Below the pieces are notes generated by a model. It had not been told where the DNA came from, did no database searches, and saw only the letters and a list, made by a program, of their open reading frames with translations. A stretch of 64,000 nt of DNA from assembly GCF_030013205.1 (NCBI RefSeq), contig NZ_CP122648.1, one strand, 5' to 3'. Origin of the DNA: Escherichia coli. Lineage in GTDB: Bacteria > Pseudomonadota > Gammaproteobacteria > Enterobacterales > Enterobacteriaceae. Positions 298-44,609 of this stretch are shown in pieces. Positions within the stretch are counted from its first letter, which is position 1, and each line of letters opens with the position of its first letter. Both the position numbers and the translations under genes were made by a program.

Positions 298-640
298 CAT
301 TATTCCTGGTGAATCGGTTAACGCCACGCTGGTTTTAAAAGATGCACTACCGCAATGTTATTGCTGTTTTGGTATGTTTTGCGGGTTTGATACATCAACA
401 CAGCCTGAACTATTCCCTGTTAAATCGTGAGATAAGAAAGCATTCAAAAGCATAAATTCAAATTGAATCTAATTGTAACAAAGGTCAACGTTGTTCGTTA
501 TCAAAATTACATGTCCGTAGAGTCTGATTTTGCTGATTGCAGGGGAGGGTGGCGAGAGGATTTACACAGGCTGACACTTTATACTTTTCGCTTACCGACG
601 AAGCAAACAGGCGCATTGCAGCGCCTGTCGGATGGAAATT

Positions 641-1417
641 TCATTTGCTGCCGCTGGTGGCCGTATCGAGATGCACTACCGGGTTTTCTGCGAACAGATA
701 GCGGTCGGCATTGAACTCGAAATCGTCGCTGGTTTCGTTAAATAACATGATTTTGGTGTTTTCCAGATGCTGCCACATTGCCAGCTTAGCAGCATGAGGA
801 TCTTTGCGAATTAACGCCTTGAGGATTTGATCGTGGTCATCACACCAGTTATCGACGGTACGGGCATCAATGTGTTCGTGCAGTTTTTTCCAGTACGGGT
901 TATGACTACGCTGGGTCCACATTTTTTCAACGATAGCCGCCAGGGCGGAGTTCTGCGTCGCCAGGGCTACCTGAATGTGGAACTGCAAATCCCACTCGGA
1001 ATCACGGAAGCATTGTTCGCCGCGCGCCTGCTCCTGGATGGCCATCAGTTTCATGATGTCCTGTTTTGTGACCTGAGTTGCCGCGAACTCGGCAATATTA
1101 CTTTCGATGAGCTGGCGAGCCTGGAGCAACTCAAACGGACCGTAATTGGCGAATTCCATATTATTGTCAGCCGCCTGCTGATGGCGCGGCTGGTTGGAAA
1201 CCACATGAATACCTGAACCTTTACGCACTTCGACATAGCCTTCAACTTCCAGCATGATGATGGCTTCACGAACTACCGTACGGCTGACGTTCTTTTCATC
1301 GGCAATAAAGCGCTCAGCAGGCAGTTTATCACCCACCAGATAGACGCCCTGTTCGATGCGCTCTTTCAGATCAGCGGCAAGTTGTTGATACAAACGGCGT
1401 GGTTCAGTGATTTCCAT
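641..1417 (-). CDS. exuR: GntR-family repressor of hexuronate utilisation ExuR
   Basis: ORF 641..1432; protein from internal Met [37 protein letters not shown] (258 aa) recognised as ExuR; start moved to sixth codon of track ORF. Confidence 0.9.
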
Positions 1418-1492
1418 ATGCGCTCCAGGCATGATACGGCAGACTATATTTGTTATACCACTTTTGCGAGTTTAGCTCTACTCACAGTGATG

Positions 1493-1518
1493 AAAAAGCC
1501 GCCTGAGAAGGCGGCTTT
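1493..1518 (-). terminator. Rho-independent terminator downstream of exuT
   Basis: GC hairpin AAGCCGCCT-loop-AGGCGGCTT followed by a T-run when read on minus strand, just 3' of exuT stop. Confidence 0.5.
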
Positions 1519-1546
1519 GAAGGGAAACTAAAACTTACACGAAGCC

Positions 1547-2845
1547 TTAATGTTGCGGTGCAGGATCGTTATGTGTTTCCTGCGCCACCTCAATCGCCGG
1601 TTTGTTCTGCAACACCGTCCAGATAACCAGTGCACCCAGCAGGTCGAATACTGCCAGAACTGCGAACAGCGGGCTGAAGCCGATGGTGTCAGCCAGTGCA
1701 CCGACAACCAGCGCAAACAGCGTACTTGCCAGCCATGCGGACATCCCGGTTAAACCATTCGCCGTTGCCACTTCGTTACGACCGAACACGTCAGAAGAGA
1801 GCGTAATCAGCGCGCCAGACAGTGCCTGGTGGGCAAAACCACCGATACACAGCAGCATAATTGCGACATACGGGTTGGTGAACAGACCGATCATACCCGG
1901 GCCAATCATCAGCACAGCACCCAGCGTTACGACCATCTTACGGGAAACGATCAGGTTCACACCAAACCAACGCTGGAACAGCGGCGGCAGGTAACCACCG
2001 AGGATACAACCGAGGTCAGCAAACAGCATCGGCATCCAGGCGAACATCGCGATCTCTTTCAGGTTAAAGCCGTAAACTTTAAACATGAACAGCGGGATCC
2101 ACGCGTTAAAAGTACCCCAGGCAGGTTCTGCCAGGAAACGCGGCAGCGCGATACCCCAGAACTGACGGTTACGCAGGATCTGACCAACGGACATTTTCTT
2201 CGCTGTGTCAACCTGGTGCTGGGCTTCCTGACCATTAATAATGTAGTCGCGTTCTTCATCGGTCAAATGCTTCTGGTCGCGCGGATGTTTATAGAAAATC
2301 AGCCATGCCATCGCCCAGATAAAGCTCAATGCACCGGAGATGATAAATGCCATCTGCCAGCTGTGCATTACGATTGCCCATACCACCAGCGGCGGTGCAA
2401 TCATCGCACCAATCGAAGAACCTACGTTAAAGTAACCTACCGCGATGGAACGCTCTTTCGCCGGGAACCATTCGGAGCTGGCTTTCAGACCCGCCGGGAT
2501 CATCGCTGCTTCCGCGGCACCGACCGCACCACGAGCAACAGCCAGGCCGCCCCAGCTACCTGCCAGCGCGGTTGCACCACAGAACACGGCCCACAGCACA
2601 GCAAACATTGCATAACCGATTTTCGTACCCAGCACATCCAGTACATAACCTGCTACCGGTTGCATGACCGTATAAGCAGCAGAATAGGCTGCGATGATAT
2701 AGGAATACTGTTGGGTGGAGATGTTTAACTCTTCCATCAGAGTTGGCGCAGCTGCCGCCACAGTGTTACGCGTCAGGTAACCAAGCACGGTGCCGAGCGT
2801 CACCAGTGCGATCATATACCAACGTAACCCTTTAATTTTACGCAT
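1547..2845 (-). CDS. exuT: Hexuronate transporter ExuT (MFS)
   Basis: ORF 1547..2965; recognised ExuT sequence begins at internal MRKIKGLRWYMIALVTLGTV (432 aa), multi-TM MFS composition. Confidence 0.9.
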   Translation of the reverse strand: MRKIKGLRWYMIALVTLGTVLGYLTRNTVAAAAPTLMEELNISTQQYSYIIAAYSAAYTVMQPVAGYVLDVLGTKIGYAMFAVLWAVFCGATALAGSWGGLAVARGAVGAAEAAMIPAGLKASSEWFPAKERSIAVGYFNVGSSIGAMIAPPLVVWAIVMHSWQMAFIISGALSFIWAMAWLIFYKHPRDQKHLTDEERDYIINGQEAQHQVDTAKKMSVGQILRNRQFWGIALPRFLAEPAWGTFNAWIPLFMFKVYGFNLKEIAMFAWMPMLFADLGCILGGYLPPLFQRWFGVNLIVSRKMVVTLGAVLMIGPGMIGLFTNPYVAIMLLCIGGFAHQALSGALITLSSDVFGRNEVATANGLTGMSAWLASTLFALVVGALADTIGFSPLFAVLAVFDLLGALVIWTVLQNKPAIEVAQETHNDPAPQH

Positions 2846-4739
<1,894 letters not shown>

Positions 4740-33264: not shown

Positions 33265-33317
33265 CTGATATATAAAAAGAAAAAGGCTGACGATTTCTCG
33301 TCAGCCTTTGCTATGTC

Positions 33318-33362
33318 TGGTGGCCCCTGCTGGACTTGAACCAGCGACCAAGCGATTATGAG
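33318..33362 (-). repeat. 45-bp direct repeat of the tRNA ileX 3' end (island att core, yqjH-proximal side)
   Basis: TGGTGGCCCCTGCTGGACTTGAACCAGCGACCAAGCGATTATGAG is identical to 44410..44454 (3' part of ileX); diverges from the tRNA thereafter. Confidence 0.85.
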
Positions 33363-33471
33363 TTGGTTGATAACCCTTTACTTACAGATAATTAGCGATA
33401 CTTTTCAATACCTTAGTATTTTTTAAAACTACTGTATAAATACCTGTATATACCCCAAAATACTTCTTTAC

Positions 33472-33520
33472 GGTATCCTATAGGTATCCTGGAGCAGAAC
33501 AAGCGATTTTCCAGGATACC
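33472..33520. promoter_or_regulatory. Putative integrase arm-type binding sites (GGTATCC repeats)
   Basis: GGTATCCTATAGGTATCCTGG plus inverted CCAGGATACC just upstream of int; near-identical GGTATCCTATAAGTATCCTGG recurs at 44347..44367 at the other island end. Confidence 0.5.
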
Positions 33521-33543
33521 AGATCGCTTGGTGGGGTGTATGA

Positions 33544-34971
33544 GTGAAATTATTCAGATTCTCTAAAGTAAAAATTGCAGAACTGCCAACGCCGGAACAT
33601 GGACAGGTCGAATATGGTGATACGGAGGTTAACGGGCTGCGTGTCCGTGTAGGTTCGTCTGGTGTGAAAAGTTTCTGCATTTCCCGTAAGCGTAACGGAA
33701 AATTTATTCGTGCAACGCTGGGGCGTTTTCCTGATCTGAGCGTGGATAATGCCAGGGCTAAAGCTATGGAACTCCTTGGCGAAGTCGCCACAACGGGGAT
33801 AAATCCGAACATAGCAAAGCGCACTAACAACAAGGCCATGATAACGCTGAGTAAGGCGATTGACGCCTACGTAAAAAATCGTGGCCACCGCCTGAAACCC
33901 GCCACAGAAAAACAGTACCGCAGCATATTACAGAATTATTCCGGTGACTGGATGGCCCATACCCTCGCCAGTATTTCCCGCGAACGGGTGGAACAACGGC
34001 ATAAGGCCATCACTGATGGGGCTGTATGGTTCGGTGCTGATAAAACCACGTTACGGGCTGGGGTTGGTACAGGAAGCAAGGCACAGGCCGATTTATGGGC
34101 GCGTGCGCTACGTGCTGTGTGTCGGTTTGCGCATGATCATTACCGTGATGATGCGGGTAATACTCTTTTACCGGATCCGCCGACTCTGGTACTGAGCACC
34201 AAGCGCCAGTGGCACGGAACGGTAAGAAAAACGGAACGTATCCGCCTGCATGATTTTCCCCGCTGGTTTGCTGCTGTAGCTGCTGTGCGCGACCAGGGCG
34301 AACAGGAAAGGGATGATATAGCGGTGACGGTATGCGATGCCGTGGAAATGGCGCTTTTTACCGGACTGAGGAAATCAGAAATTTTTGGCCTTACGTGGGA
34401 TCGCGTGAATATGGGCGGTCGTTTTTTCTGGATAGACACCACGAAAAACGGGGATCCGCTCGAATTACCGATTACTGATACGTTGCGGGAAATGTTCCAC
34501 CGCCGACTGAAAATAAAAAACGCTGATGATGTTCTGGTGTTTCCTGGTGTGAAGGGAGTGATTCAGGAAACACGGCACATCATAGACCGGATAAGCGCGG
34601 CTACTGTTCCAGAGTCGAACGATGAAATGCTCTCCCCTGTACCATTCAAATGGCACGATGCACGCCGGACGTTCGGAACGGTTGCCGAACTGGTGGGCGT
34701 GGGCAATTACATCCTCAAGCGCCTGATGAATCACCGTACTATGCGAAGTGCTGACGTAACGCAGGGGTATTTACATTTTGGTGCTGATGAACTGCTGGAG
34801 CCAGCGTCACGGATAGAACGGGCAATTCTGGAACATGCCGGGCTGGTGGAGAGTAAAAAATCTATCGATGCGCAATTGCTTTCCGCACTGGAGAGTATGA
34901 GTGACAGTGAGAAACGCGCATTACTATTTAGTATCGTTAATTCAAATGGTGGTTTGAATGTCAGAAAATAA
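33544..34971 (+). CDS. Tyrosine recombinase / P4-type integrase
   Basis: 475-aa ORF (GTG start at 33544); N-terminal arm-binding-like segment (GLRVRVGSSGVKSFCISRKRNGKFIRATLGRFPDLSVDNARAKAMELL) and C-terminal catalytic region with H-x-x-R and Tyr (WHDARRTFGT...TQGYLHF). Confidence 0.85.
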   Translation: MKLFRFSKVKIAELPTPEHGQVEYGDTEVNGLRVRVGSSGVKSFCISRKRNGKFIRATLGRFPDLSVDNARAKAMELLGEVATTGINPNIAKRTNNKAMITLSKAIDAYVKNRGHRLKPATEKQYRSILQNYSGDWMAHTLASISRERVEQRHKAITDGAVWFGADKTTLRAGVGTGSKAQADLWARALRAVCRFAHDHYRDDAGNTLLPDPPTLVLSTKRQWHGTVRKTERIRLHDFPRWFAAVAAVRDQGEQERDDIAVTVCDAVEMALFTGLRKSEIFGLTWDRVNMGGRFFWIDTTKNGDPLELPITDTLREMFHRRLKIKNADDVLVFPGVKGVIQETRHIIDRISAATVPESNDEMLSPVPFKWHDARRTFGTVAELVGVGNYILKRLMNHRTMRSADVTQGYLHFGADELLEPASRIERAILEHAGLVESKKSIDAQLLSALESMSDSEKRALLFSIVNSNGGLNVRK

Positions 34972-35644
34972 AATCATTGCTGCAATAGAATTTGACCATA
35001 ATGATGCGAAGGATATGAATACTATTGCAGATTATATTAGAGATGAACTGGCGTCTTCTTTTGTAAAAAAAACGATATGCGATATGGCAAATATCACACC
35101 ATCTAAAATGTCTCTGGAGGAGAGATTATCATTATCGTCAGAGATAGAAAATAAGGATTTAAAGGTTAATATTTCTGTATGTGCCGGATATGGAGATGAT
35201 TTTGATAAAAAATTTAATAGTGCATATTCAGAATTCAATGATATTTTGAAAGCTGCCATTATATTTGAAGTTCTTGGTTTCAACAGACTTGCAGATCAGT
35301 TACGTGAAAGATATGCGATTTTAGTGTCGGAGAATTTATTAAAATCAGTACGTGATATAGCTAATGTAAAGAAAATTATCAGTAAAGACCGTAGTAAAGC
35401 AAAGAAAGGAAAAACAAACAGGCATAAATCAACAGCGTTATCTATAGCTTGTAACACTTGGAAAAAATACCCTAATGCCAGTTTACCCGGGCTATCCGCA
35501 GAGATATACGCGCACTTACGCAATAAATGGAATGATGTCCCTGTAGTTGGGACTATAGAGAGATGGCTTAAGGAGTCGGGGATGAATCCAAAATCCCCGC
35601 AAAAAAACAGGGATTTTAAGTTAGTTATTGGAGACAAAGAATAA
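34958..35644 (+). CDS. Hypothetical protein, AT-rich cargo gene (no family recognised)
   Basis: 228-aa ORF MSENKIIAAIEFDHNDAKDMNTIADYIRDE...; start overlaps int stop; markedly AT-rich by eye compared with the rest of the island; Lys-rich central segment. Confidence 0.55.
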   Translation: MSENKIIAAIEFDHNDAKDMNTIADYIRDELASSFVKKTICDMANITPSKMSLEERLSLSSEIENKDLKVNISVCAGYGDDFDKKFNSAYSEFNDILKAAIIFEVLGFNRLADQLRERYAILVSENLLKSVRDIANVKKIISKDRSKAKKGKTNRHKSTALSIACNTWKKYPNASLPGLSAEIYAHLRNKWNDVPVVGTIERWLKESGMNPKSPQKNRDFKLVIGDKE

Positions 35645-35776
35645 ATCCAGTTTTATCCTCTGTAATCCAGATTTCAGCCATGTAAACCAGATATGCGATT
35701 TTGTATCTGGTTTTCCTGTCTTCAAGACTTCCCCATCGCTAAATAACGTATACCTGTTCTTAATCAGAAGTATACG

Positions 35777-35974
35777 GTGATACTCATGCATTTAGAAAAG
35801 ATGACCCGCAAAGAAGCTGCCGAGCATTTGGGGGTAAGTGTCCAGACTCTTGCTAACTGGGCGTGTACTGGCAAGGTAAAAATCCCTTTTCATAAGCTGG
35901 GGCGCAAAGTGCTGTATATGCGCACTGATCTCGATGCTTATCTTGCATCCACTCGCAGAACGCAGACGGTGTAA
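35777..35974 (+). CDS. Excisionase/AlpA-type helix-turn-helix DNA-binding protein
   Basis: MTRKEAAEHLGVSVQTLANWACTGKVKIPFHKLGRKVLYMRTDLDAYLAS fits the excisionase-family HTH pattern; three candidate starts (GTG 35777, ATG 35786, ATG 35801). Confidence 0.7.
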   Translation: MILMHLEKMTRKEAAEHLGVSVQTLANWACTGKVKIPFHKLGRKVLYMRTDLDAYLASTRRTQTV

Positions 35975-36115
35975 GGGGGGAGTGATGGCACATAAAACAA
36001 AGGCGACCGCAAAAGGGTCGCCAGTGGGAACAAGGGAAAACAAAAGCATCACCAACAATGCCACATTTGCGGCTGGTGGGCAATGTGATCAGTGTGCTGG
36101 CTTGCTGGTTAGCTG

Positions 36116-36298
36116 TCAGCCTTTGGGTTCTATGCCTTCTTTGCGTAGCTTATCACGACAAGCATTTTTTACCCATGAGCTGAAATTACCAGGCCCTGCA
36201 ACTTCGTTAATTTGTTGCAACAATGTGTCTTCGAAGCGGATGTTTTTCTTTGTGCTGCCGGAGCGATCAAATTTTGGTTTCACATTTTCTTCTTGCAT
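36116..36298 (-). CDS. Putative ribbon-helix-helix (Arc/CopG-like) small regulator
   Basis: 60-aa ORF; segment KKNIRFEDTLLQQINEVAGPGNFSSWVKNACRDKLRKE fits a beta-strand/helix/Gly-turn/helix RHH pattern; start abuts palindrome TGGTACGTACCA; weak RBS. Confidence 0.4.
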   Translation of the reverse strand: MQEENVKPKFDRSGSTKKNIRFEDTLLQQINEVAGPGNFSSWVKNACRDKLRKEGIEPKG

Positions 36299-36343
36299 TG
36301 GTACGTACCATCGTTATAAACTGAAATCAAATGGTACGTACCA
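36299..36343. promoter_or_regulatory. Pair of identical 12-bp perfect palindromes TGGTACGTACCA (candidate operators)
   Basis: Copies at 36299..36310 and 36332..36343, 33 bp centre-to-centre, in the spacer between divergent small genes. Confidence 0.5.
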
Positions 36344-36443
36344 CATTAAAAATACGCAACCATTAAATACAGCGAAGCCCGGCAGTGCGGGAACACTAAC
36401 CGGGCTTCTAACCACCAACGATAGAAAGCGTATCGAGGTAGCT

Positions 36444-36647
36444 ATGAGAAATCATACCACACACCCGCAAGGGCGGGACTCGCACGACCTGAATAAATAC
36501 ATCTGGCGTTTTATCGCCCTGAGCACCGCACAACCGCGCGTGATTCACATCGTGGCCACCAGCGAACAGGAAGCACGCCAGCAATCCCCGGCTGGCTGCG
36601 TGATGGTATTCGCCGCCCGTATTCGTCAGGGGGTGTGCCATGCCTGA
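36444..36647 (+). CDS. Hypothetical small protein (68 aa)
   Basis: ATG at 36444 preceded by GAGGT RBS; MRNHTTHPQGRDSHDLNKYIWRFIALSTAQPRVIHIVATSEQEARQQSPAGCVMVFAARIRQGVCHA; stop overlaps next start. Confidence 0.5.
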   Translation: MRNHTTHPQGRDSHDLNKYIWRFIALSTAQPRVIHIVATSEQEARQQSPAGCVMVFAARIRQGVCHA

Positions 36648-36960
36648 TATGTCAAATTACCAGTACCTGATTAATCCGCATTTTAACTGTGAGCATGATA
36701 TTGCTAAAAAGGTTTATTCCGCTGCGGATGGGGCTACTGACAATATATCAATGGGTATTGCGTCAATTGGTAGCCTGATGTGGCATGCGTCAGAAAATGA
36801 GGACTATGACGAAAAGGCTATGCGCATTGATATGGGTAATATCGGTTTGTTACTGGCAATGCTTGGGCAGTTTGATATTTCGTTACGGTGCACCATTGAA
36901 AATGCCACAGATGCATTAAATGCCATAAAGAAAGCGAATACTGATTCAAATCGGGGATAA
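36640..36960 (+). CDS. Hypothetical protein (106 aa)
   Basis: ORF with start overlapping upstream stop (translational coupling), part of a same-strand chain leading to the primase gene. Confidence 0.5.
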   Translation: MPDMSNYQYLINPHFNCEHDIAKKVYSAADGATDNISMGIASIGSLMWHASENEDYDEKAMRIDMGNIGLLLAMLGQFDISLRCTIENATDALNAIKKANTDSNRG

Positions 36961-36966
36961 ATAATC

Positions 36967-37266
36967 ATGAGAACATATTTATCTGGCTTGACTGCCAGCG
37001 GTTATGCACACCCCAAAATTATCCCCGGCGCTATTTATCTGGATAAGAACGGTAACAGAGTAACGGTAAAAGAACTGATGTTTGACCGTGTGTATTTTAT
37101 TCGTGATGGCTATTCATTTCATAGTTCGCTGAACGTGGAGATCTTTATTAGCAGATTCAGGCGGGAAATCCCGCTTTCCAGAAATAACCATGTGTCATGT
37201 ATGGATGTTGATAAAAAACTACAGGAACTGAAAAACATGATTGCCGCGTGGAGAGAGCAGAAATGA
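36967..37266 (+). CDS. Hypothetical protein (99 aa)
   Basis: ORF immediately after previous gene; stop overlaps primase start. Confidence 0.5.
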   Translation: MRTYLSGLTASGYAHPKIIPGAIYLDKNGNRVTVKELMFDRVYFIRDGYSFHSSLNVEIFISRFRREIPLSRNNHVSCMDVDKKLQELKNMIAAWREQK

Positions 37267-39080
37267 AAAAAGCGCCAAATTTAAAACACCAGCCGCGTGA
37301 CAAAATGACGGAAGTCATCATTTTTGCGGGTAGTGATGCGTGGGCACATGCGAAACAGTGGCAGGAACAGGACGGGCGACTGGCTGGCGATAACGTGCCA
37401 CCTGTCTGGCTTGGAGAGCAACAACTTGCCGAACTGGACAACCTGCAAATCGTACCGGACGGACGCTATCGCGTGCGTCTCTATCAGGCGGGGTTATTGC
37501 GTCCGGGGCTTGTTAATACCATCGGGCAGAAACTGGCAGTGGCAGGTGTCAGGGATGCTGATTATTACCCTGAAGGAATGCACAGCCAGAAACGGGAGAA
37601 CTGGCGCGAATATCTGGAACGTGAACGGGCAGAGCAGGCGGAAAAGAAAAAGGTAGTTGAACTGCCTGTAAAGAAAAAAGAGCGGGTAAAAGACGATAAC
37701 GCTTCATCACTGGCGCTTAACCAGATGGGAGCAAGTCAACGCGGCGAAGTTCTCCTGGCACATTATGGCGGTGAACTGGCGATTCATGCTGACTCTGACA
37801 CTGTTCACCATTACAACGGCGTTGTATGGGAGCCAGTACAGGATAAAGAATTACAGCGAGCTATGGCACAGATTTTCATTGATGCGGAGATCAGCTATTC
37901 GCAGAACGCCATTAAATCGGCGGTCGATACCATGAAGTTAAGTTTGCCTGTAATGGGGAATACAGCCCGTAACCTGATTGGATTCAGTAACGGGGTATTT
38001 GATACCAGAACAGGTAATTTTCGGGAGCATAACAAAAACGACTGGTTGTTAATTGCCAGTGAATTACCTTTCAGCCCACCAGCAGAGGGGGAAACGCTGG
38101 CAACACATGCGCCGAATTTCTGGAAGTGGTTACGCCGTTCGGTGGCTGAGAATGACCGCAAGGCGGATCGCGTACTGGCTGCATTATTCATGGTGCTGGC
38201 GAACCGGTACGACTGGCAGTTATTCATTGAGGTAACAGGTCCAGGGGGAAGTGGTAAAAGCGTGATGGCGGAGATTTGCACCATGCTGGCGGGTAAGGCC
38301 AACACAGTATCGGCAAGCATGAAGGCGCTGGAAGATGCAAGGGAACGCGCGTTAGTGGTTGGCTTTTCGCTGATTATCATGCCGGATATGACCCGCTACG
38401 CTGGTGATGGGGCAGGAATTAAGGCCATTACAGGCGGTGACAAGGTGGCAATTGACCCGAAACACAAAGCCCCCTACTCAACGCGTATTCCGGCAGTAGT
38501 GCTGGCGGTTAACAATAACGCCATGTCATTCAGTGACCGCAGCGGGGGGATCTCACGTCGTCGGGTGATATTCAATTTTTCGGAAGTTGTACCGGAGAAC
38601 GAACGCGATCCAATGCTGGCGGAAAAAATAGAAGGTGAGCTGGCGGTAGTGATTCGCCATCTGCTTACACGGTTTGCTGACCAGGACGAAGCCAGACGCC
38701 TGTTATATGAGCAGCAGAAATCTGAAGAAGCACTGGCGATAAAGCGAGAGGGGGATTCGCTGGTGGACTTCTGCGGCTATCTCATGGCGTCGGTAATGTG
38801 TGATGGCCTGTTAGTGGGTAATGCTGAAATTGTGCCATTCAGCCCACGCAGGTATCTCTATCATGCCTATCTGGCTTATATGAGGGCACATGGGTTTGGT
38901 AAACCTGTAACACTGACGCGCTTCGGTAAAGATATGCCGGGGGCAATGGCGGAATATGGCAGGGAGTATATGAAACGGAAAACGAAGCACGGTTTGCGTT
39001 CAAACGTGACACTGACGGAGGAATCAGAAGACTGGATGCCATCATGTGTATCGGTCACTAATGACGATAGCAAAAATTAA
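37263..39080 (+). CDS. Primase/helicase-type replication protein (P4 alpha-like; D5-type NTPase)
   Basis: ORF 37248..39080; likely ATG at 37263 (MKKAPNLKHQ...); Walker A GPGGSGKS with downstream hydrophobic-D Walker B-like LIIMPD; immediately followed by TGTTCACC iteron array. Confidence 0.8.
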   Translation: MKKAPNLKHQPRDKMTEVIIFAGSDAWAHAKQWQEQDGRLAGDNVPPVWLGEQQLAELDNLQIVPDGRYRVRLYQAGLLRPGLVNTIGQKLAVAGVRDADYYPEGMHSQKRENWREYLERERAEQAEKKKVVELPVKKKERVKDDNASSLALNQMGASQRGEVLLAHYGGELAIHADSDTVHHYNGVVWEPVQDKELQRAMAQIFIDAEISYSQNAIKSAVDTMKLSLPVMGNTARNLIGFSNGVFDTRTGNFREHNKNDWLLIASELPFSPPAEGETLATHAPNFWKWLRRSVAENDRKADRVLAALFMVLANRYDWQLFIEVTGPGGSGKSVMAEICTMLAGKANTVSASMKALEDARERALVVGFSLIIMPDMTRYAGDGAGIKAITGGDKVAIDPKHKAPYSTRIPAVVLAVNNNAMSFSDRSGGISRRRVIFNFSEVVPENERDPMLAEKIEGELAVVIRHLLTRFADQDEARRLLYEQQKSEEALAIKREGDSLVDFCGYLMASVMCDGLLVGNAEIVPFSPRRYLYHAYLAYMRAHGFGKPVTLTRFGKDMPGAMAEYGREYMKRKTKHGLRSNVTLTEESEDWMPSCVSVTNDDSKN

Positions 39081-39093
39081 ACTTATGGAATAA

Positions 39094-39316
39094 CTGTTCA
39101 CCACTGTTCACCCTGTCATAAATATCTTTTGTATCAGTATGTTATAGGGTGAGCAGTTATTTATGAACTGTTCACCAAACTATTCACTGTTCACCTTTTT
39201 GATTGTTTATTGAGCTTCAAGGGTGAACAGTGGTGAACAGTTGGTGAATAGTTTTTGTGAAACTGTTCACCCCTTAACATTATGAATTAAAAGATAAAAT
39301 ATCAAAAGGTGAACAG
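39094..39316. repeat. Iteron array, 9-mer CTGTTCACC in both orientations (candidate satellite replication origin)
   Basis: Forward CTGTTCACC at 39094, 39104, 39168, 39187, 39263; reverse GGTGAACAG at 39222, 39232, 39308; one-mismatch variants at 39148 and 39243; TGTTCACC is the iteron bound by P4 alpha protein at ori/crr. Confidence 0.7.
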
Positions 39317-39367
39317 GTGAAGGGTTAAAACGCAAAAATTTTAATTTACTGCTGTGAGATAAAGCCT

Positions 39368-39613
39368 ATGACAGCGAAGCACACAAAAAAATCACAATCG
39401 CACGCCCTTGATTTGACGGAACACTGGTTAAGGGTGTCGATAAAAATCATCGACCGCAACGCCGGGGAAGGATATGCGAAAGCACATCCCGAACTGATTA
39501 GCTCATTCATGACAACGGCAGCTGCAAACTTTGCCACGCTGACAGAACGGGAGATTGCCGAAGCGGAACAGGTGACAACCATCAACGTTAAAACCGGAGA
39601 GCAGACAGCATGA
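39368..39613 (+). CDS. Hypothetical protein (81 aa)
   Basis: ORF downstream of iterons, stop overlaps next gene start. Confidence 0.45.
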   Translation: MTAKHTKKSQSHALDLTEHWLRVSIKIIDRNAGEGYAKAHPELISSFMTTAAANFATLTEREIAEAEQVTTINVKTGEQTA

Positions 39614-40032
39614 CAGCACAGATAGCGGCTTACGGGCGGCTGGTGGCTGACCCGCAGTTAAAGACCACCAGCAAGGGTACACAAATGACGATGGCGAGTA
39701 TGGCGGTCCCACTTCCGTGCAGCCAGGCAGATGACGGAACGGCGACGATGTGGTTATCCGTCCTGGCGTTTGGCAGACAGGCCGAAGCACTGGCAAAGCA
39801 CCGCAAGGGTGAACTCCTGAGCGTGGCGGGTAACATGCAGGTGAGCCAGTGGACCGGACAGAACGGGGAGACGCGGCAGGGCTGGCAGGTTATCGCAGAC
39901 AGCGTAATCAGTGCGAGAACGGCGCGACCGGGCGGCAAAAAAGGCCAACAGGGGCAGGCTACTGATGCACTGAGCAGAGCAAAACAACAGGCGGGAAATG
40001 ATGATCCGTACGGGGATAACATACCGTTTTAA
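39610..40032 (+). CDS. Single-stranded DNA-binding protein-like (OB fold) with Gly/Gln-rich tail
   Basis: 140-aa ORF; layout (N-terminal OB-fold-like segment, then GGKKGQQGQ..., acidic DDPYGDNIPF C-terminus) resembles SSB; similarity judged by eye. Confidence 0.55.
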   Translation: MTAQIAAYGRLVADPQLKTTSKGTQMTMASMAVPLPCSQADDGTATMWLSVLAFGRQAEALAKHRKGELLSVAGNMQVSQWTGQNGETRQGWQVIADSVISARTARPGGKKGQQGQATDALSRAKQQAGNDDPYGDNIPF

Positions 40033-40046
40033 GCAACGAGTAACAG

Positions 40047-40072
40047 AAGCCGGAGCAATCCGGCTTTTTTCT
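40047..40072 (+). terminator. Rho-independent terminator after SSB-like gene
   Basis: GCCGGAGCAATCCGGC hairpin followed by TTTTTT. Confidence 0.6.
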
Positions 40073-40144
40073 GGGTCCTCCCGGTGTAGTGACCTGCCAC
40101 GGGGCGGGAGCGTCGCGGAAAAAGGCTGGTTTTTGCATTTTCAT
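40073..40144. repeat. 72-bp conserved element, copy A (paired with 42607..42678)
   Basis: GGGTCCTCCCGGTGTAGTGACCTGCCACGGGGCGGGAGCGTCGCGGAAAAAGGCTGGTTTTTGCATTTTCAT; about 67/72 identical to copy B by manual alignment; contains dyad CTCCCGGTG...CCACGGGGCGGGAG. Confidence 0.7.
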
Positions 40145-40330
40145 GGCGGCGGCAGCATGTGTAGTAATTTATTGATAATTAAAAGTTATTTCTGTTTTCA
40201 CCTGTACAATATTTTTTTCTCCCTGTCATTAGACCAGTTTGCAATTAATTGAAATATATAAATAAATTTGTTTTTCACCTGCCAGATGGAGTTGCCTGTG
40301 CAAAACGTGTTCAGATGGCGGGATATTTAT

Positions 40331-40355
40331 GCCGGATTCTCTCCGGCTTTTTTGT
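40331..40355 (+). terminator. Rho-independent terminator between repeat copy A and the capsid operon
   Basis: GCCGGATTCTCTCCGGC hairpin followed by TTTTTT. Confidence 0.55.
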
Positions 40356-40455
40356 GTCTGAATCTGATTAATCTATTTTTATGATAGAAATATGTTTATC
40401 TACCACTTTTATCGATCAATAATGCGCGCAGTTTAGTCAGTAAGAGGAAGTTACT

Positions 40456-40665
40456 GTGAATTGTATTAACGACCTGAACACAGGCGAGGTAAAAGGTGGT
40501 TCCGTTCATCTGGATGCGCAGACCGTTATGCGCCTTAAGCAGTACAGGATCGACCACATAAATCATCATCCTGACCAACCATTACCAGGTGCGGCGCAGA
40601 TTGTCAGACACGCGGTTAACGCGTGGCTTGATAAGAATGGTTTTGCATCTGGGGGGGAGCAATGA
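40456..40665 (+). CDS. Hypothetical small protein (69 aa), translationally coupled to protease-capsid gene
   Basis: GTG start preceded by AAGAGGAAG RBS; stop overlaps start of the 637-aa ORF. Confidence 0.45.
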   Translation: MNCINDLNTGEVKGGSVHLDAQTVMRLKQYRIDHINHHPDQPLPGAAQIVRHAVNAWLDKNGFASGGEQ

Positions 40666-42575
40666 ATCACTGGTACACCATTAAGGCGCTGGGTGTTCGC
40701 GGAGCGGCAGAAATATCCATCTATGAAGAAATTGGCGGCTTCGGTATTACCGCGAAGCAGTTTGCGGAAGACCTGAAAGCCCTGGGCGATGTCTCACATA
40801 TCGACCTGCGGATCCATTCGCCAGGTGGTGACGTGTTTGAAGGCATCGCCATCTATAACCTGTTACGGAATCATCCGGCAGAAATTACGGTTTATATCGA
40901 TGGTGTTGCGGCTTCAATGGCTTCGGTTGTCGCAATGGCTGGCGATCGTGTTGTGATGCCGGAAAACGCCATGATGATGATACATAAGCCGTGGGGTATC
41001 TCTGGCGGAAATGCTGGTGATATGCGTGATTATGCTGATTTGCTGGATAAGGTGGAAACCGTGTTAGTCCCTGCTTATGCCAGAAAAACGGGCAAATCAG
41101 CACAGGAAATTACCGCCATGCTGGAAGATGAAACCTGGATGGACGGGAAAGAATGCCTTAAGCACGGTTTTGCTGATGAATTGTTGCCATCTGTCACAGC
41201 AATGGCGCGAATTGAATCGAAACGCACAGGAGATTTTTCACACATGCCTGAAACCATTAAAGGAATGATTACCCCGCCACAGGGAGCAGCCAATATTGCT
41301 GGTAATGAACAGAAGCGCATCAACGGAATAAGTGAAGTGTTTAGCCTGTTCGGCAGTCGTTACGACGGGATCAAAATGGCGTGCCTGGAGGATGCATCAT
41401 GTACACCGGAGATGGCCCGTGAAAAGTTGTTGAACGAGCTGGGGCGCGAGTCCACGCCATCCAATAAAAATATCCCGACTCATATTTATGCCGGTAACGG
41501 GAACATAACAGGCGATGCAATTCGTCAGGGGCTTTATTCTCGTCTTGGGTATGAACGCCCAGAGCGGGGAAATCCTTACGCGATGATGAGCCTTTTTGAA
41601 ATGGCCCAGGCATCACTAACTGATCGTGGTATCAGTGTTGGCAGTTTTTTAAATCGCTCGCAGGTCGTTAATGCAGCTTTCACACACAGCAGCAGCGATT
41701 TTTCTCATATTCTGGCTGGTGGTGCTGAAAAATCAGTGCTGAAAGGCTGGCAGGACAGCGGCGAAACGTTCCAGAAATGGACGCGTACCGGATCGCTTTC
41801 AAACTTTCATGAAGCAAAGCGCGTTGGTCTGAATGGTTTTTCAAAGCTGGATAAAGTACCGGAAGGTGCGGAATATAAATACATCACCACCAGCGATAAA
41901 GGTGTACCTATTGCGCTGGCCACATACGGTAATATTTTTTCTGTTACCCGTCAGGCCATTATCAACGATGACCTGACCCAGTTAACTACAATCCCCATGG
42001 CGATGGGGCGTGCGGCCGCCAGAACAGTAGGTAATCTGGTTTATCTTCTGTTAACCAGCAACGGCAAATTTACGGATGGTAAAGCGTTATTCCATGCCGA
42101 TCATAAAAATCTTATTGCGAAGGATATGGACATGGTGGGGCTTGATGAAGCCCGTAAGCTGATGCGCCTCCAGGAGGATGCTAACGGCGACTCACTGAAT
42201 ATTACCCCTGCTTTTGTTCTGGTCCCTGCCGCGCTGGAATCTGCCGCGCGTCGCGCCATTCTGTCATCGTCATCAGTCTTTCCGGTTGGTGATGAGAGCA
42301 CTATCAATCAGAACCCCGGCATCATTAACGTGGTGAAAGATATGGCAGAAGTAATTGTTGAGCCACGTCTTGATAAGGCCAATAGCAAGGAATGGTATGT
42401 AGCCGCAGCTAAGGGGATGGACACAATAGAAGTCGCTTATCTTGATGGTATGGATACGCCATATCTTGAGGAGCAGGTGGGCTTTACTGTTGATGGTGTC
42501 GCCTGGAAAGTGCGCATAGATGCAGGTGTCGCGGCCCTCGATTATCGCGGATTACTGAAATCGAGTGGAGCATGA
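40662..42575 (+). CDS. Prohead protease (ClpP/S49-like) fused to a capsid-like C-terminal domain
   Basis: 637-aa ORF; N-terminal IHSPGGDVFEGIAIYN and GVAASMASVVAMAGD resemble the ClpP/S49 serine-protease motifs (cf. lambda gpC DTPGG); C-terminal ~350 aa has no recognised enzyme motif and is interpreted as major capsid by context and composition. Confidence 0.7.
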   Translation: MNHWYTIKALGVRGAAEISIYEEIGGFGITAKQFAEDLKALGDVSHIDLRIHSPGGDVFEGIAIYNLLRNHPAEITVYIDGVAASMASVVAMAGDRVVMPENAMMMIHKPWGISGGNAGDMRDYADLLDKVETVLVPAYARKTGKSAQEITAMLEDETWMDGKECLKHGFADELLPSVTAMARIESKRTGDFSHMPETIKGMITPPQGAANIAGNEQKRINGISEVFSLFGSRYDGIKMACLEDASCTPEMAREKLLNELGRESTPSNKNIPTHIYAGNGNITGDAIRQGLYSRLGYERPERGNPYAMMSLFEMAQASLTDRGISVGSFLNRSQVVNAAFTHSSSDFSHILAGGAEKSVLKGWQDSGETFQKWTRTGSLSNFHEAKRVGLNGFSKLDKVPEGAEYKYITTSDKGVPIALATYGNIFSVTRQAIINDDLTQLTTIPMAMGRAAARTVGNLVYLLLTSNGKFTDGKALFHADHKNLIAKDMDMVGLDEARKLMRLQEDANGDSLNITPAFVLVPAALESAARRAILSSSSVFPVGDESTINQNPGIINVVKDMAEVIVEPRLDKANSKEWYVAAAKGMDTIEVAYLDGMDTPYLEEQVGFTVDGVAWKVRIDAGVAALDYRGLLKSSGA

Positions 42576-42581
42576 CAACAA

Positions 42582-42605
42582 GGGCGGCGACAGCCGCCTT
42601 TTTTA
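42582..42605 (+). terminator. Rho-independent terminator after protease-capsid gene
   Basis: GGCGGCGACAGCCGCC hairpin followed by TTTTTT. Confidence 0.6.
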
Positions 42606-42606
42606 C

Positions 42607-42678
42607 GGGTCCTCCCGGTGGAGTGGTCTGCCACGGGGCGGGAGCGGCGCGGAAAAAGGCTAGTTTTTGCATTTTCAT
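42607..42678. repeat. 72-bp conserved element, copy B
   Basis: GGGTCCTCCCGGTGGAGTGGTCTGCCACGGGGCGGGAGCGGCGCGGAAAAAGGCTAGTTTTTGCATTTTCAT; same terminator-then-element arrangement as copy A. Confidence 0.7.
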
Positions 42679-42831
42679 TCGTCGTCATCATCTTTATATG
42701 ATATTGAATTTTAAGTATTTTTATTTTTGGTATGTTAATTTTGCTTGTTTTATGCTCAACATATAGCGCATTTTTTGACCTCTTCTGAAAGTTGTTCGCA
42801 GGATGCATGTTTAAAACATTCTGGAGCGGGT

Positions 42832-43317
42832 ATGGATCGAGAACTGAAAAATCTGATGCTGAACATTAATCAACTGGCGGCGATAGCGGGAATATGTCGT
42901 CAGACTGCGGCGGCAAGGCTGAAAAACATCCAGCCAGCCGGAGGGCATGACAAGCTGAAACTCTATCGGGTGACTGACATTCTGACCTGTTTTCTTGATC
43001 TTCCCGTTCCGGCATCACTGGAAGAAATGGAGCCACATGACCGTAAGGCCTGGTATCAGTCCGAACGTGAACGCCTCAAGTTCGAACAGGAAACGGCGCA
43101 ACTCATACCCGCCGATGATGTGCGAAAAGAGATGGCTATATGGGGGGAAATCGTAAGCGAGGAACTGGCAAAACTCCCCAATATTCTGGCACGTGATGCC
43201 GGGCTTAAACCGATGGCAGTAAACAGAGTGCAGTCAATTATTGACGATTTGTGTAATCAGATTATCAGCCGGATGGTAAAAAATGACGTAGTGAATGAGG
43301 TCGCAAAACAGGCATGA
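42832..43317 (+). CDS. Terminase small subunit, lambda Nu1-like
   Basis: ORF 42745..43317; likely ATG at 42832 with GGAG RBS; MDRELKNLMLNINQLAAIAGICRQTAAARLKNIQPAGGHDKLKLYRVTDILTCF parallels the Nu1 N-terminal wHTH region (KKQLADIFGASIRTIQNWQEQGMPV...EVLYDSAAVIKWY); comparison from memory. Confidence 0.65.
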   Translation: MDRELKNLMLNINQLAAIAGICRQTAAARLKNIQPAGGHDKLKLYRVTDILTCFLDLPVPASLEEMEPHDRKAWYQSERERLKFEQETAQLIPADDVRKEMAIWGEIVSEELAKLPNILARDAGLKPMAVNRVQSIIDDLCNQIISRMVKNDVVNEVAKQA

Positions 43318-43601
43318 TAATGACCGAATCTGAAATACTGCGATTAATCCGCTGTGCTGGTGGAATCAGCCAGTTGGCTGACGAACAGGCCGCGCAGCCG
43401 GATACAGTCACCGCTGAAAATTACGCGCGTGTGGTGGCTGAGGTGATGCGCCGTGACGGTATTGAGCTTAACGGCGTGGATATGCGCAACATACGAACCA
43501 GAGTTCTTGAGTTGCTGGCATACCGTCGCCGTTCTCAACAACGGAGGGAGAGCGCGAAAAATACTTACCAGTGGAGGAAGCCGGAGCACTTACGGCGGTA
43601 A
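43314..43601 (+). CDS. Hypothetical protein (95 aa)
   Basis: ORF overlapping terS stop by 4 nt; basic C-terminus. Confidence 0.45.
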   Translation: MIMTESEILRLIRCAGGISQLADEQAAQPDTVTAENYARVVAEVMRRDGIELNGVDMRNIRTRVLELLAYRRRSQQRRESAKNTYQWRKPEHLRR

Positions 43602-43618
43602 CTGGTTGATATTATCGA

Positions 43619-43870
43619 AAGTGCAAAAATGCACTTAGCAACTGGTGGCGAGTTGCAGATCTGCAACTCGACTATGAAACTACGGAAACTACCCGTAGTT
43701 TGGGTAGTAAGAGTAACACCCAGATTTTGGGGCTTACTCGCGATACCCAAATAAATGGTATCGGTGGAAGAAATATCGTTTCTCATATGTGAGTACCGAG
43801 GGCGGAATTCCGCCTTCGGTTACTTATTGTGCTCATGCACAGGGAGAGGCGGGTACAAATCTCTGTACCC
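43619..43870. other. Hairpin/palindrome-dense non-coding region at the attR-proximal end of the island
   Basis: At least eight distinct dyads in ~250 bp: AAGTGCAAAAATGCACTT, GAGTTGCAGATCTGCAACTC, AAACTACGG-N7-CCGTAGTTT, TGGGTAGTAAGAGTAACACCCA, CGATACC-N9-GGTATCG, GGCGGAATTCCGCC, TGTGCTCATGCACA, GGGTACA-N6-TGTACCC; no convincing ORF. Confidence 0.6.
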
Positions 43871-44051
43871 TGACGTCTTCCGGACTGCCAGCCCCATCGT
43901 TTTTTTACGCCCGCGAAAAATAAAAATTGTTTGTATGTGAGTATTGTAGCCAGCAAAAGCTCTTTCTTTGGTGGCTTATTGTTTCTAATAGATTTTGGGA
44001 GGTAGAAATGGGAGGCCCAGCGAAAGCTGGGCCGAGCTTGTTACGCTGTCA

Positions 44052-44195
44052 TTACTTCAGCATGATAACTAAAGCTATACATACTAGCACTACGGCTATT
44101 GGGCATAGACCTAAATTGCCAAGTGCTGCGATTAAACCTGTAACGGCAATCACACGTGCAGACAGCAGGTCTGAGCCCTTTCTTAAAGTATCCAT
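44052..44195 (-). CDS. Small hydrophobic peptide (47 aa), candidate membrane peptide of type-I-toxin-like size
   Basis: ATG preceded by GGAGG RBS (ACGGAGGTATCA-ATG); translation MDTLRKGSDLLSARVIAVTGLIAALGNLGLCPIAVVLVCIALVIMLK has polar N-terminus and one predicted TM helix; below the 60-aa track cutoff. Confidence 0.3.
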   Translation of the reverse strand: MDTLRKGSDLLSARVIAVTGLIAALGNLGLCPIAVVLVCIALVIMLK

Positions 44196-44346
44196 TGATA
44201 CCTCCGTCAGGGTTTTTGCCGGTCTCTTGGAGAGTTGGGGGCAAAAGTTCAGACCCGTAGCACTTTCTTGTTCGCAGGTGAACGGCTGCTACGACCCAAC
44301 TGTTCTGTAGGCATGAGCCAATTCTTACTTGTTAATACTTCTCAGA

Positions 44347-44367
44347 GGTATCCTATAAGTATCCTGG
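44347..44367. promoter_or_regulatory. Putative integrase arm-type site, tRNA-proximal side
   Basis: GGTATCCTATAAGTATCCTGG, near-identical to 33472..33492. Confidence 0.45.
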
Positions 44368-44409
44368 TAAAGCAAGATAGTTTGGATACATCTGTAATTC
44401 ATTGAAATC

Positions 44410-44485
44410 TGGTGGCCCCTGCTGGACTTGAACCAGCGACCAAGCGATTATGAGTCGCCTGCTCTAACCACTGAGCTAAGGGGCC
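44410..44485 (-). tRNA. ileX: tRNA-Ile (anticodon CAU, lysidine-modified isoleucine tRNA)
   Basis: Reverse complement reads GGCCCCTTAGCTCAGTGGTTAGAGCAGGCGACTCATAATCGCTTGGTCGCTGGTTCAAGTCCAGCAGGGGCCACCA: 76 nt, CAT anticodon in loop, encoded CCA end; canonical position next to mug. Confidence 0.9.
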
Positions 44486-44609
44486 ATGGTAGCGGATTAT
44501 AAAGTAACTCCGTGTCGCAATCCAGCCATTACCGCGCGCCTGCTGTTTTTATAAACAATGTATTTTCAATCCGTTATACTTTTCCTGGTGATGTTAGAAA
44601 GGAGTAAAT

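Follow-up and report, generated by a model that had tools for sequence, protein, structure and literature searches.

A hairpin-rich non-coding tail of an ileX-integrated phage satellite of Escherichia coli, probably a mosaic of three modules

Introduction

What does a stretch of DNA do that is packed with hairpins and nearly free of genes, and does the small peptide gene beside it belong to the same system? This question was raised by positions 43619-44195 of a 64,000-nt window from the Escherichia coli contig NZ_CP122648.1 (assembly GCF_030013205.1), to which all coordinates below refer. Judged by its gene set and attachment (att) repeats, the surrounding island is an enterobacterial phage satellite of the phage-inducible chromosomal island (PICI) type integrated in the tRNA gene ileX, and 43619-44195 is its non-coding tail from the last satellite gene to the right attachment site, attR. 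Phage satellites carry virulence and defence genes between enteric bacteria, and their choice of helper phage is an active question. The original prediction had offered three readings of the tail: a structured non-coding RNA with a small membrane toxin, a packaging region with a cohesive-end site (cos), or an array of protein-binding sites. On balance, the tail is probably a mosaic of three modules with separate histories, namely an array of hairpins, a cos site and a peptide cassette next to ileX, and the earlier readings held in part.

Results

The region 43642-43926 was matched in 664 of 5,426 complete E. coli genomes (~12%), whereas the whole stretch up to the tRNA, including the peptide cassette, was found in only 24 of the 5,426, and homology broke sharply near 43926. 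The ileX-integrated satellite of strain A33 (L109; L numbers are our handles for the sequences compared) had the hairpin array and cos and lacked both the 95-aa gene, which precedes the array in the window, and the peptide gene, so the modules can occur apart. A crude scan of both strands over 43200-44520 gave no sigma-70-like promoter. When 43300-44500 was searched with Rfam 15 at the gathering threshold and up to E = 5, the tRNA was the sole real match; a sub-threshold match to the Plastid-ycf2 5' untranslated region (39.5 bits, gathering threshold 65.7) at 44412-44485 on the + strand is an artefact, the mirror image of the tRNA on the opposite strand.

Hairpin array

Nine inverted repeats were found between 43619 and 43870 by repeat search, far beyond chance, including a perfect 22-bp palindrome at 43649-43670 and a 13+13 palindrome at 43795-43820. 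The + strand of 43602-43930 folded at -132.2 kcal/mol compared with -87.9 +/- 5.5 kcal/mol for dinucleotide shuffles (z = -8.1, 0 of 100 as good), and the - strand folded at -118.2 kcal/mol (z = -7.7), confirming the dense dyads that had been predicted. In a GC-corrected 250-nt scan of the 64 kb, the array ranked second on the + strand (z ~ -4.5), behind 39051-39350. No conserved open reading frame (ORF) was found in the hairpin stretch, as had been stated before, and a 41-codon ORF at 43629 lost its ATG in homologues. The array also holds the dyad pair AAACTACGG-N7-CCGTAGTTT / ACTACCC-N7-GGGTAGT, for which a pseudoknot-like pairing had been proposed. This proposal failed in the comparison, since the second helix (ACTACCC/GGGTAGT) was broken in L017 and L078 and the first arm was deleted in L028 and L086; the connecting loops also appear too short.

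The whole array spans 43599-43840. Its first unit (43599-43636, + strand) consists of the motif TAACTGGTTGATA, which overlaps the stop codon of the preceding gene, followed by the hairpin AAGTGCA-aaaa-TGCACTT at 43619-43636. On the - strand, TAACTGGTTGATA is an exact match to the IHF consensus WATCAANNNNTTR (43599-43611), one of six exact matches in the 64 kb. A conserved core of 121 nt follows (43647-43767, + strand) and is common to the matches in capsid-forming PICI (cfPICI)-type, capsid-fusion, lambda-capsid and helper-embedded satellites; it contains the 22-bp palindrome, alternative hairpins at 43677-43701 and 43688-43708, and hairpins at 43711-43739 and 43741-43763. The strongest stem-loop (43788-43830, + strand) has 13 pairs, one of them G·U, in its core at 43795-43820, and then TACTTATTGT. 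This was the only site in the tail resembling an intrinsic terminator, under a lenient rule, and no T-run was found after the other eight dyads. Clean terminators with T-runs follow the SSB and capsid genes (e.g., GGCGGC-GACA-GCCGCC-TTTTTT), one before each lambda-type cos.

In all contexts inspected, the array closed a satellite at its 3' end, usually directly behind a gene for a 93-95-aa protein of the family phrog_1561. The contexts included capsid-fusion islands (the window and L001), cfPICI-type islands with portal, HNH, terS and terL genes (L009, L016), satellites at the clpS site that have a lambda-like capsid, a decoration protein and terS (L005, L017), a remnant beside fis (L006), and EcCICFT073 (L024; tail at NC_004431 1388655-1389200), an experimentally studied satellite. 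In E. coli 13E0725 (L007) and O157:H7 ECP17-46 (L008), the array satellite lies inside a lambdoid prophage terL of which the N-terminal part is missing, and is co-oriented with the prophage late genes; the array ends at the junction, without an SfV-type cos. Such a helper-embedded configuration has reportedly been described by Mageeney and colleagues. The array satellites differed in capsid, terS and att types. The array was not matched in the phage collection except for its cos part. Three plasmid records matched, all typed non-mobilizable: an excised satellite, which was the best match, a 4.9-Mb record of chromosome size and a 32.6-kb record. No real plasmid was recognised among these records.

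A unit of ~50 nt recurs in these regions, consisting of (C/G)(C/G)TAAC-N2-(G/A)YTGA(T/A), a spacer of 9-12 nt and a 5-8-bp stem with an A/T-rich centre. Homologous regions had 1-5 copies, and the stem sequences differed. The tail of L018 was hairpin-dense (z ~ -7) despite having no DNA similarity to the window and a protein identity of 44%. That of L022 (73% protein identity) opened with the same motif-plus-hairpin unit, with a z of -1.5 over a stretch that reaches into the flanking genes. The exact unit motif was present on 22 IMG/VR contigs; in 16 of them it lay 61-326 nt downstream of the phrog_1561 C-terminus, and the remaining six matches look chance-like. Because the last codons of the gene (GGCGGTAACTGGTTGA) are repeated in some internal units, arrays seem to grow by the joining of 'gene end plus hairpin' segments from different lineages.

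The 31 distinct unit hairpins contained 206 Watson-Crick, 18 G·T and one A·C pairs. In a duplex palindrome or a cruciform, G·T and A·C would be equivalent, so the 18:1 ratio argues for selection on stems formed by the single + strand, which is the sense strand of the operon. By folding energy, this strand was ahead of the - strand by 14 kcal/mol. The core hairpins varied in ways compatible with G·U pairing (e.g., AAACTACGG changed to AAATTACGG, giving U·G), and the pair table of a 20-sequence alignment had the same bias of G·U over A·C. Compensatory changes were found in hairpin 1 at three pairs (GTGCA/TGCAC, ACGCA/TGCGT, GCGCA/TGCGT) and in hairpin 5 at 43741/43763, where C-G was replaced by T-A; the remaining pairs of the alignment were invariant. 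The core was 92-100% identical between islands; the adjacent gene was 62-83% identical at codon position 3 and 86-92% at positions 1+2. Judged from these identities, the core, loops included, would be either more constrained than the neighbouring protein or else spread by recombination. No match to the 121-nt core was found in the EcCICFT073 array.

On this evidence, the array most likely acts as RNA. It would form the structured 3' tail of the late transcript, up to the terminator-like stem-loop at 43795-43830, and would end or insulate late transcription before cos, attP and int, which come next in the circular form. Other possible effects are 3'-end protection of the message and processing to a stable RNA. 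These terminator, insulator or stable-RNA roles are suggested by the fold of the sense strand. The core is conserved beyond the needs of its stems, indicating that it probably also makes a specific contact with a partner. A bolder proposal, which we consider unlikely, is that the core is a functional RNA of several satellite classes, a processed 3'-derived regulatory or decoy RNA that would bind a host or helper factor or pair with transcripts and so control the conflict between satellite and helper, rather than a passive terminator.

Packaging sites

The second module (43842-43928, + strand), which contains the last dyad (43851-43870), is probably a copy of a cos of the SfV/SfI/SfII/ST64B type (HNH-dependent, HK97-like). 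It was 84-90% identical to the HNH-terS intergenic region of SfV, SfI, SfII, SfIV, ST64B and relatives, and ~40% of the hairpin-region matches that were sampled extended over the SfV-type cos. The end of the SfI record coincides with the equivalent of this cos, and the SfV record begins 7 nt upstream of the decamer. In SfI, a 10-nt gap, TGCCCGCCCC, separates the ends of the particle DNA, and packaging is of the cos type as in SfV (PMC3636060). The cohesive-end equivalent in the window, TGCCAGCCCC at 43886-43895, matched the phage TGCCCGCCCC at nine of ten positions. Other satellites had either the TGCCAGCCCC allele or the exact phage decamer. This A allele was present on 14 IMG/VR contigs (L133-L146), all of 5-22 kb, and on no phage-sized contig; TGCCAGCCCC may be a satellite-specific cosN variant. 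The stem of the dyad 43851-43870 also differed between phages and satellites.

Phages of the SfV type have the order HNH-cos-terS; the satellite carries no HNH or terS gene of this kind, which fits a borrowed site. The island lacks a matching TerS, TerL and HNH, its own DUF1441 TerS being unrelated to SfV TerS, so that the SfV-type cos would need to be cut by helper enzymes. It would let the terminase and HNH protein of an SfV/SfI/ST64B-type helper cut and package the satellite. The earlier packaging reading was thus upheld for the last dyad and 60 bp beyond it. It was rejected for the array as a whole: in EcCICFT073 the cosN GGGCGGCGACCT occurs at L024 19559 (+) and 20298 (-), upstream of the 93-aa gene, and the array downstream has no cosN, showing that the array itself cannot be cos.

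The SfV-type site appears to be the third cos of the island, beside two sites of the lambda type. Copy 1 (40051-40144, + strand) has a cosQ-like GGGTCCT at 40073-40079, a cosN-like GGGCGGGAGCGT at 40102-40113 and an IHF consensus at 40165-40177. Copy 2 (42585-42678, + strand), directly upstream of the DUF1441 terS, has its cosQ-like sequence at 42607-42613 and its cosN-like sequence at 42636-42647. The two copies form a 94-nt direct repeat, 87% identical, that flanks the capsid gene; the cosN-like sequence, 22 bases past GGGTCCT, is GGGCGGGAGCGT or GGGCGGGAGCGG. We take GGGTCCT to be the lambda cosQ heptamer. The 94-nt repeat matched the region upstream of DUF1441-type terS in the mEp460, PhiR, Stx2, Fels-1 and cdtI phages and also in phage 606R10, and the cdtI and Tritos phage records start exactly at window position 42636. 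The island would thereby be equipped for two unrelated packaging systems, the lambda/mEp460 type and the SfV/HK97 type with HNH. If both work, two cos types on one 11-kb island would be a simple way to broaden the helper range.

Peptide cassette

The third module is a cassette at 44014-44407 on the - strand. The 47-codon ORF with a strong ribosome-binding site that had been noticed earlier is, judged by its conservation, a real gene. The gene occupies 44052-44195 of the cassette, its ATG preceded at a distance of five bases by GGAGG (44201-44205), and the encoded peptide is hydrophobic at residues 14-46 (Kyte-Doolittle 19-residue mean up to 3.0). Homologues fell into five 90%-identity clusters with 72-100% identity and a conserved body, KGSDLLSARVIAITGLIxALGNIGLGPxAxVLVCIALVxxLK. 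The pairwise ratio of nonsynonymous to synonymous polymorphism (pN/pS) was 0.14-0.38, indicating that the ORF is protein-coding and under purifying selection. No match to the peptide was found in Pfam, PHROGs, NCBIfam or PADLOC. Wherever a contig extended to the tRNA, the peptide gene was co-oriented with tRNA-Ile(CAT) and located ~215 nt beyond its 3' end. The cassette occurred in cfPICI-type islands (L010, L106) and in capsid-fusion islands including L013, whose chromosomal neighbours differ and which probably comes from another genus. Neither a phrog_1561 gene nor a hairpin array was found near the cassette in L010, L013, L105 and L106. Just 3' of the peptide gene is a GC-rich hairpin, GGCCCAGC-GAAA-GCTGGGCC (44014-44033, - strand), conserved with compensatory changes in five lineages, and the homology of the cassette ends at this hairpin.

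The leader between the tRNA and the peptide gene (44196-44407, - strand) combines integrase arm-type repeats with conserved RNA structure. A 21-bp repeat, GGTATCCTATA(A/G)GTATCCTGG, is present in the leader at 44347-44367 (GGTATCCTATAAGTATCCTGG, + strand) and again at 33472-33492, i.e., ~40 bp inside attR and ~110 bp inside the left attachment site, attL. Because a copy also stands beside attL, the leader repeat is read as an arm site, and the repeats are likely to be arm-type binding sites of the 475-aa integrase. The fold of the leader had a z-score of -4.3. In the consensus fold of five lineages, a helix CGUAGCR/YGCUACG had G-C replaced by A-U in two lineages, and another helix was UUUUGCC/GGCAAAA in one form and CCUUGCU/GGCAAGG in the other, with two pairs changed on both sides. 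The leader sequence GGUCUGA and codons 8-10 (UCAGACC) formed an invariant 7-bp helix that encloses the Shine-Dalgarno sequence and the AUG.

Just outside attL is the native terminator of ileX, GGCTGACGA-TTTC-TCGTCAGCC with a T-run (33274-33306, - strand). The insertion displaced it by 11 kb, and the ileX at attR has no terminator of its own before the peptide cassette. With its terminator moved to attL, ileX transcription is expected to run into the cassette, and in the integrated state the tRNA promoter would probably read into the peptide gene. In this way, by pushing the tRNA terminator aside, integration could place a satellite gene under the control of a host tRNA promoter. Toxin, exclusion and defence are all possible roles of the peptide.

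Alternative explanations

Several points weigh against the reading of the tail given above. The RNA level of the array is read only from the G·U asymmetry, and a + strand acting as single-stranded DNA would give the same signal. Most core positions are invariant, so that covariation cannot test the core helices. Two dyads are palindromic through the centre and the array opens with an exact IHF consensus, both of which fit a role at the DNA level. Only one hairpin has a U-rich tail, which is weak, making it no more than a candidate terminator. The cohesive-end equivalent is one base off the phage sequence, in an allele seen on satellite-sized contigs only. Read-through from ileX is deduced from the missing terminator, and the promoter scan was crude. 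Deeper homologues for covariation were sought by a peptide-pattern scan of genome contigs, in which no relative was confirmed, and by a 16-mer DNA scan of the same kind of contigs, which gave chance matches only, the 16-mer being too short.

The array could work as DNA, as a nucleoprotein site where an IHF bend and a satellite or helper protein act on the dyads and on the 9-bp-spaced ACTAC/GTAGT; we judge this to be improbable. Candidate binders are the 95-aa protein or a small terminase, and the role would be that of an extended cosB/cosQ or of an accessory site for recombination or replication. The exact IHF consensus at 43599-43611 fits such a site, its consensus positions being kept and its N4 spacer varying across the repeated units, and so do the two dyads palindromic through the centre and the near-invariant core with its loops. 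Linkage of the array to the 95-aa gene is almost constant, as is frequent for a cis site and its binding protein, and a cos adjoins the array in ~40% of the sampled matches. However, an 18:1 ratio of G·T to A·C is not expected of double-stranded palindromes, the unit stems are wholly different between copies and thus unreadable by one sequence-specific dimer, and the IHF core is lost in several units (CTGAAC, CTGATA). The array is also kept in EcCICFT073, whose two cosN sites both precede the gene, and in cfPICI-type islands, whose arrays showed no SfV-type cos motif. The modelled 95-aa protein has no recognisable DNA-binding fold. What persists of the protein-binding array proposed earlier is the one IHF consensus at its start. 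The G·T tolerance would suit single-stranded DNA as well as RNA, and hairpins forming in the + strand of single-stranded DNA could make up a single-strand initiation site, or an origin or packaging signal like oriT or the f1 intergenic region, in both of which IHF sites are combined with hairpin clusters. This we hold to be very unlikely, as replication would proceed from the P4-type primase with TGTTCACC iterons at 39083-39177, packaging is as double-stranded DNA through cos, and no relaxase or nic-like motif was found; the matching plasmid records were non-mobilizable, the best being the excised satellite. The array as replication origin was rejected on the same ground, P4-type iterons adjoining the primase gene. 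Also set aside, each lacking its defining motif or partner gene, were integron attC sites, type III ToxI-like repeats, CRISPR-repeat mimics and lambda nut/boxB combined with an arginine-rich C-terminal end of the 95-aa protein.

The original prediction had also placed the hairpins and the peptide in one locus resembling a type I toxin-antitoxin (TA) system, with the hairpin stretch as antitoxin or regulatory RNA. Apart from proximity, ~200 bp on opposite strands, and the fact that both parts are structured, nothing spoke for such a pair, and it is hardly credible. The two parts are inherited independently (the array in 664 genomes, the full stretch with the cassette in 24), the cassette occurs without the array in L010, L013, L105 and L106, the cos site and the homology breakpoint near 43926 lie between them, and no complementarity beyond chance was seen by inspection. 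The independent distributions show that the hairpins are not the antitoxin of the peptide, so the earlier reading survives in its parts, a fold in the sense strand and a real peptide gene with a toxin-like leader, and not as a pair. The peptide may by itself be a type I toxin, an addiction or an abortive-infection peptide, held in check by its leader and an unseen antisense RNA, with the array uninvolved; we regard this as possible but unlikely. It is small and hydrophobic, of type I toxin size and under purifying selection, the conserved leader helix encloses the Shine-Dalgarno sequence and AUG while inner stems covary, and the gene sits at the accessory-gene end of satellites with two packaging types in more than one genus. 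Against it are the lack of a family match in Pfam, PHROGs, NCBIfam and PADLOC, the lack of a promoter-like site for an antisense RNA on either strand (in a weak scan) or of an Rfam match, and the absence of the gene from some ileX-integrated satellites.

Comparison with known systems

Satellites with borrowed cos sites and small accessory genes at the att-distal end are already known kinds. EcCICFT073 and related cos-type E. coli PICIs have been described (Fillol-Salom 2018, 2019; PMC6092414, PMC6739421), and a term search within the text of these two papers found no mention of the hairpin array. EcCICFT073 resembles the window island in having int, an AlpA-type helix-turn-helix (HTH) regulator, an Icd-like gene, DUF4222, a P4-type primase and SSB, then a packaging block with two lambda-type cosN sites, and finally a 93-aa phrog_1561 gene and the motif-plus-hairpin array. 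The window island differs by its own DUF1441 TerS, a protease-capsid fusion and a third cos of the SfV/HK97 type. No Rpp was identified in the window island, where only the 95-aa ORF was screened, its protein having no significant match in the Protein Data Bank (PDB).

Cos-type Staphylococcus aureus pathogenicity islands (SaPIs) such as SaPIbov5 need the HNH protein of the helper. Like P4 and these SaPIs, the window island has a helper-type cos copy, here of 87 bp, without the matching terminase and HNH genes. Unlike in P4 and the SaPIs, this copy coexists with an unrelated second cos type and a satellite TerS, and its decamer is TGCCAGCCCC compared with TGCCCGCCCC in the phage. Bacterial interspersed mosaic elements (BIMEs) of the RIB/RIP type in E. 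coli consist of an IHF site flanked by repetitive extragenic palindromic (REP) sequences at the 3' ends of transcription units. The array shares with them clustered extragenic palindromes at the end of an operon, an IHF consensus and probably transcribed 3' stem-loops; however, it has no REP consensus, is confined to satellites, is linked to one gene, has its units in one orientation and contains a long conserved core.

Type I toxins such as Hok, TisB, ZorO and DinQ are hydrophobic peptides of <50 residues whose ribosome-binding site is buried in a structured 5' untranslated region. The 47-aa peptide is similar in size, hydrophobicity and leader architecture. A structured leader that occludes the ribosome-binding site was present in the five-lineage consensus fold. 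No antisense or divergent small RNA was detected in a weak promoter scan or as an Rfam match. The peptide also differs in having no sequence relation to these toxins and in that its gene lies 215 nt downstream of a co-oriented tRNA without a terminator.

In the literature searched, we found no description of two unrelated cos types on one island, of an array or core common to satellite classes and conserved above the coding level, or of a tRNA-driven peptide cassette. A non-coding array that matches about one-eighth of complete E. coli genomes, and varies less than the gene next to it, is a candidate for a shared function in cis or at the RNA level.

Genetic context of the island

The chromosomal order in the window was aer, nfeR/nfeF, the island, ileX, mug, rpoD and dnaG. 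An exact direct repeat of 48 bp, corresponding to the 3' part of tRNA-Ile(CAT), bounds the 11.09-kb element, with one copy at 33316-33363 (attL) and the other at 44408-44455 (attR). The intact ileX (44410-44485, - strand) overlaps the attR copy and has the same orientation as the peptide gene. With the tyrosine integrase gene at the left end (33544-34971), these repeats confirmed the attR-proximal placement of the tail. Gene identities were taken from PHROGs matches and from an island whose right end is identical, as annotated by the Prokaryotic Genome Annotation Pipeline (PGAP). The integrase gene is followed, in order, by an AlpA-type HTH regulator, YlcI/YnfO, an Icd-like gene and DUF4222. 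Then come the P4-type primase gene (37248-39080), TGTTCACC iterons within 39083-39177, SSB, the ClpP-protease/major-capsid fusion gene (40662-42575) and the DUF1441 small terminase gene (42745-43317). No TerL, portal or tail genes were found among the island genes. The element thus has the features of a PICI: a size within ~10-15 kb, att repeats, a terminal tyrosine integrase, an AlpA-type regulator, a primase-replicase with adjacent origin, and a partial packaging module without tail or lysis genes.

The last gene of the packaging block (43314-43601, + strand) encodes the 95-aa protein of phrog_1561 (PHROGs E = 3e-51). This family is narrow, with 862 close homologues in a protein search and 37 clusters at 50% identity in an exhaustive search of cluster representatives. 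No significant match was found in Pfam, NCBIfam or PDB sequences, and PADLOC gave only a faint BrxA match (E = 0.007). The AlphaFold model had three helices with a predicted local distance difference test (pLDDT) score of 74, and no Foldseek match at E <= 0.001. The candidate role of Rpp was rejected, since there was no PDB match although the RppC structure is solved, and the three-helix model had no fold match. Rpp proteins have 139-154 aa and a TerS-like winged helix and are encoded just downstream of the PICI cosN, which does not describe the 95-aa protein; in EcCICFT073, the phrog_1561 protein is encoded by a separate gene downstream of both cos sites. As a further observation, a W and KKPERLRR are nearly invariant in the C-terminus (RRRSQQRRESAKNTYQWRKPEHLRR), and hairpins with A-rich loops follow the gene. 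In sequence this C-terminus looks like an arginine-rich RNA-binding motif of the lambda N kind, a resemblance for which neither structural nor family evidence was found.

The most hairpin-prone 250-nt region of the window on both strands was 39051-39350 (z = -5.7 and -4.8). This AT-rich region comes just behind the primase gene, and its two P4-alpha-type iterons (TGTTCACC) occupy 39083-39103 and 39157-39177. Replication of the satellite presumably starts here. In L022, a PAAR / pyocin-S-like toxin / CdiI-type immunity cassette was located at 521-3179 between terS and the 94-aa gene, and a PerC-family gene came after it. This is accessory cargo at the end of a satellite, the position expected by the original prediction.

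The island (33364-44410) is rich in Chi, with six GCTGGTGG and four CCACCAGC, i.e., 10 sites in 11 kb. A Chi-like octamer, ACTGGTGG, matching at seven of eight positions, lies at 43641-43648 (+ strand), where most homologues have the exact Chi GCTGGTGG. Across the homologues, including L005, L007, L017, L018 and L022, an exact Chi in most cases comes directly behind the first hairpin and faces RecBCD entering from the cos-cut right end, and several homologues have CCACCAGC beyond cos, on its far side. Chi sites around cos may protect DNA ends. Such protection was dropped as the role of the hairpin stretch itself, because the window octamer is a 7/8 match and Chi is dense over the whole island, showing that Chi is not specific to the stretch.

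A near-identical circular element of 10,790 bp has been deposited as the 'plasmid' pZ1323HEC0475-3 (L132, NZ_CP148328.1), in which the order is 95-aa gene, hairpins, cos, attP and int. Its existence is indirect evidence for induction and transfer by a helper phage. The FDAARGOS_1259 island (L001), whose right end is identical to that of the window island, shares its capsid, TerS and 95-aa proteins with pZ1323HEC0475-3 but has a different integrase. Judged by its sequence, pZ1323HEC0475-3 appears to be an excised circular satellite, and such satellites get into databases as plasmids.

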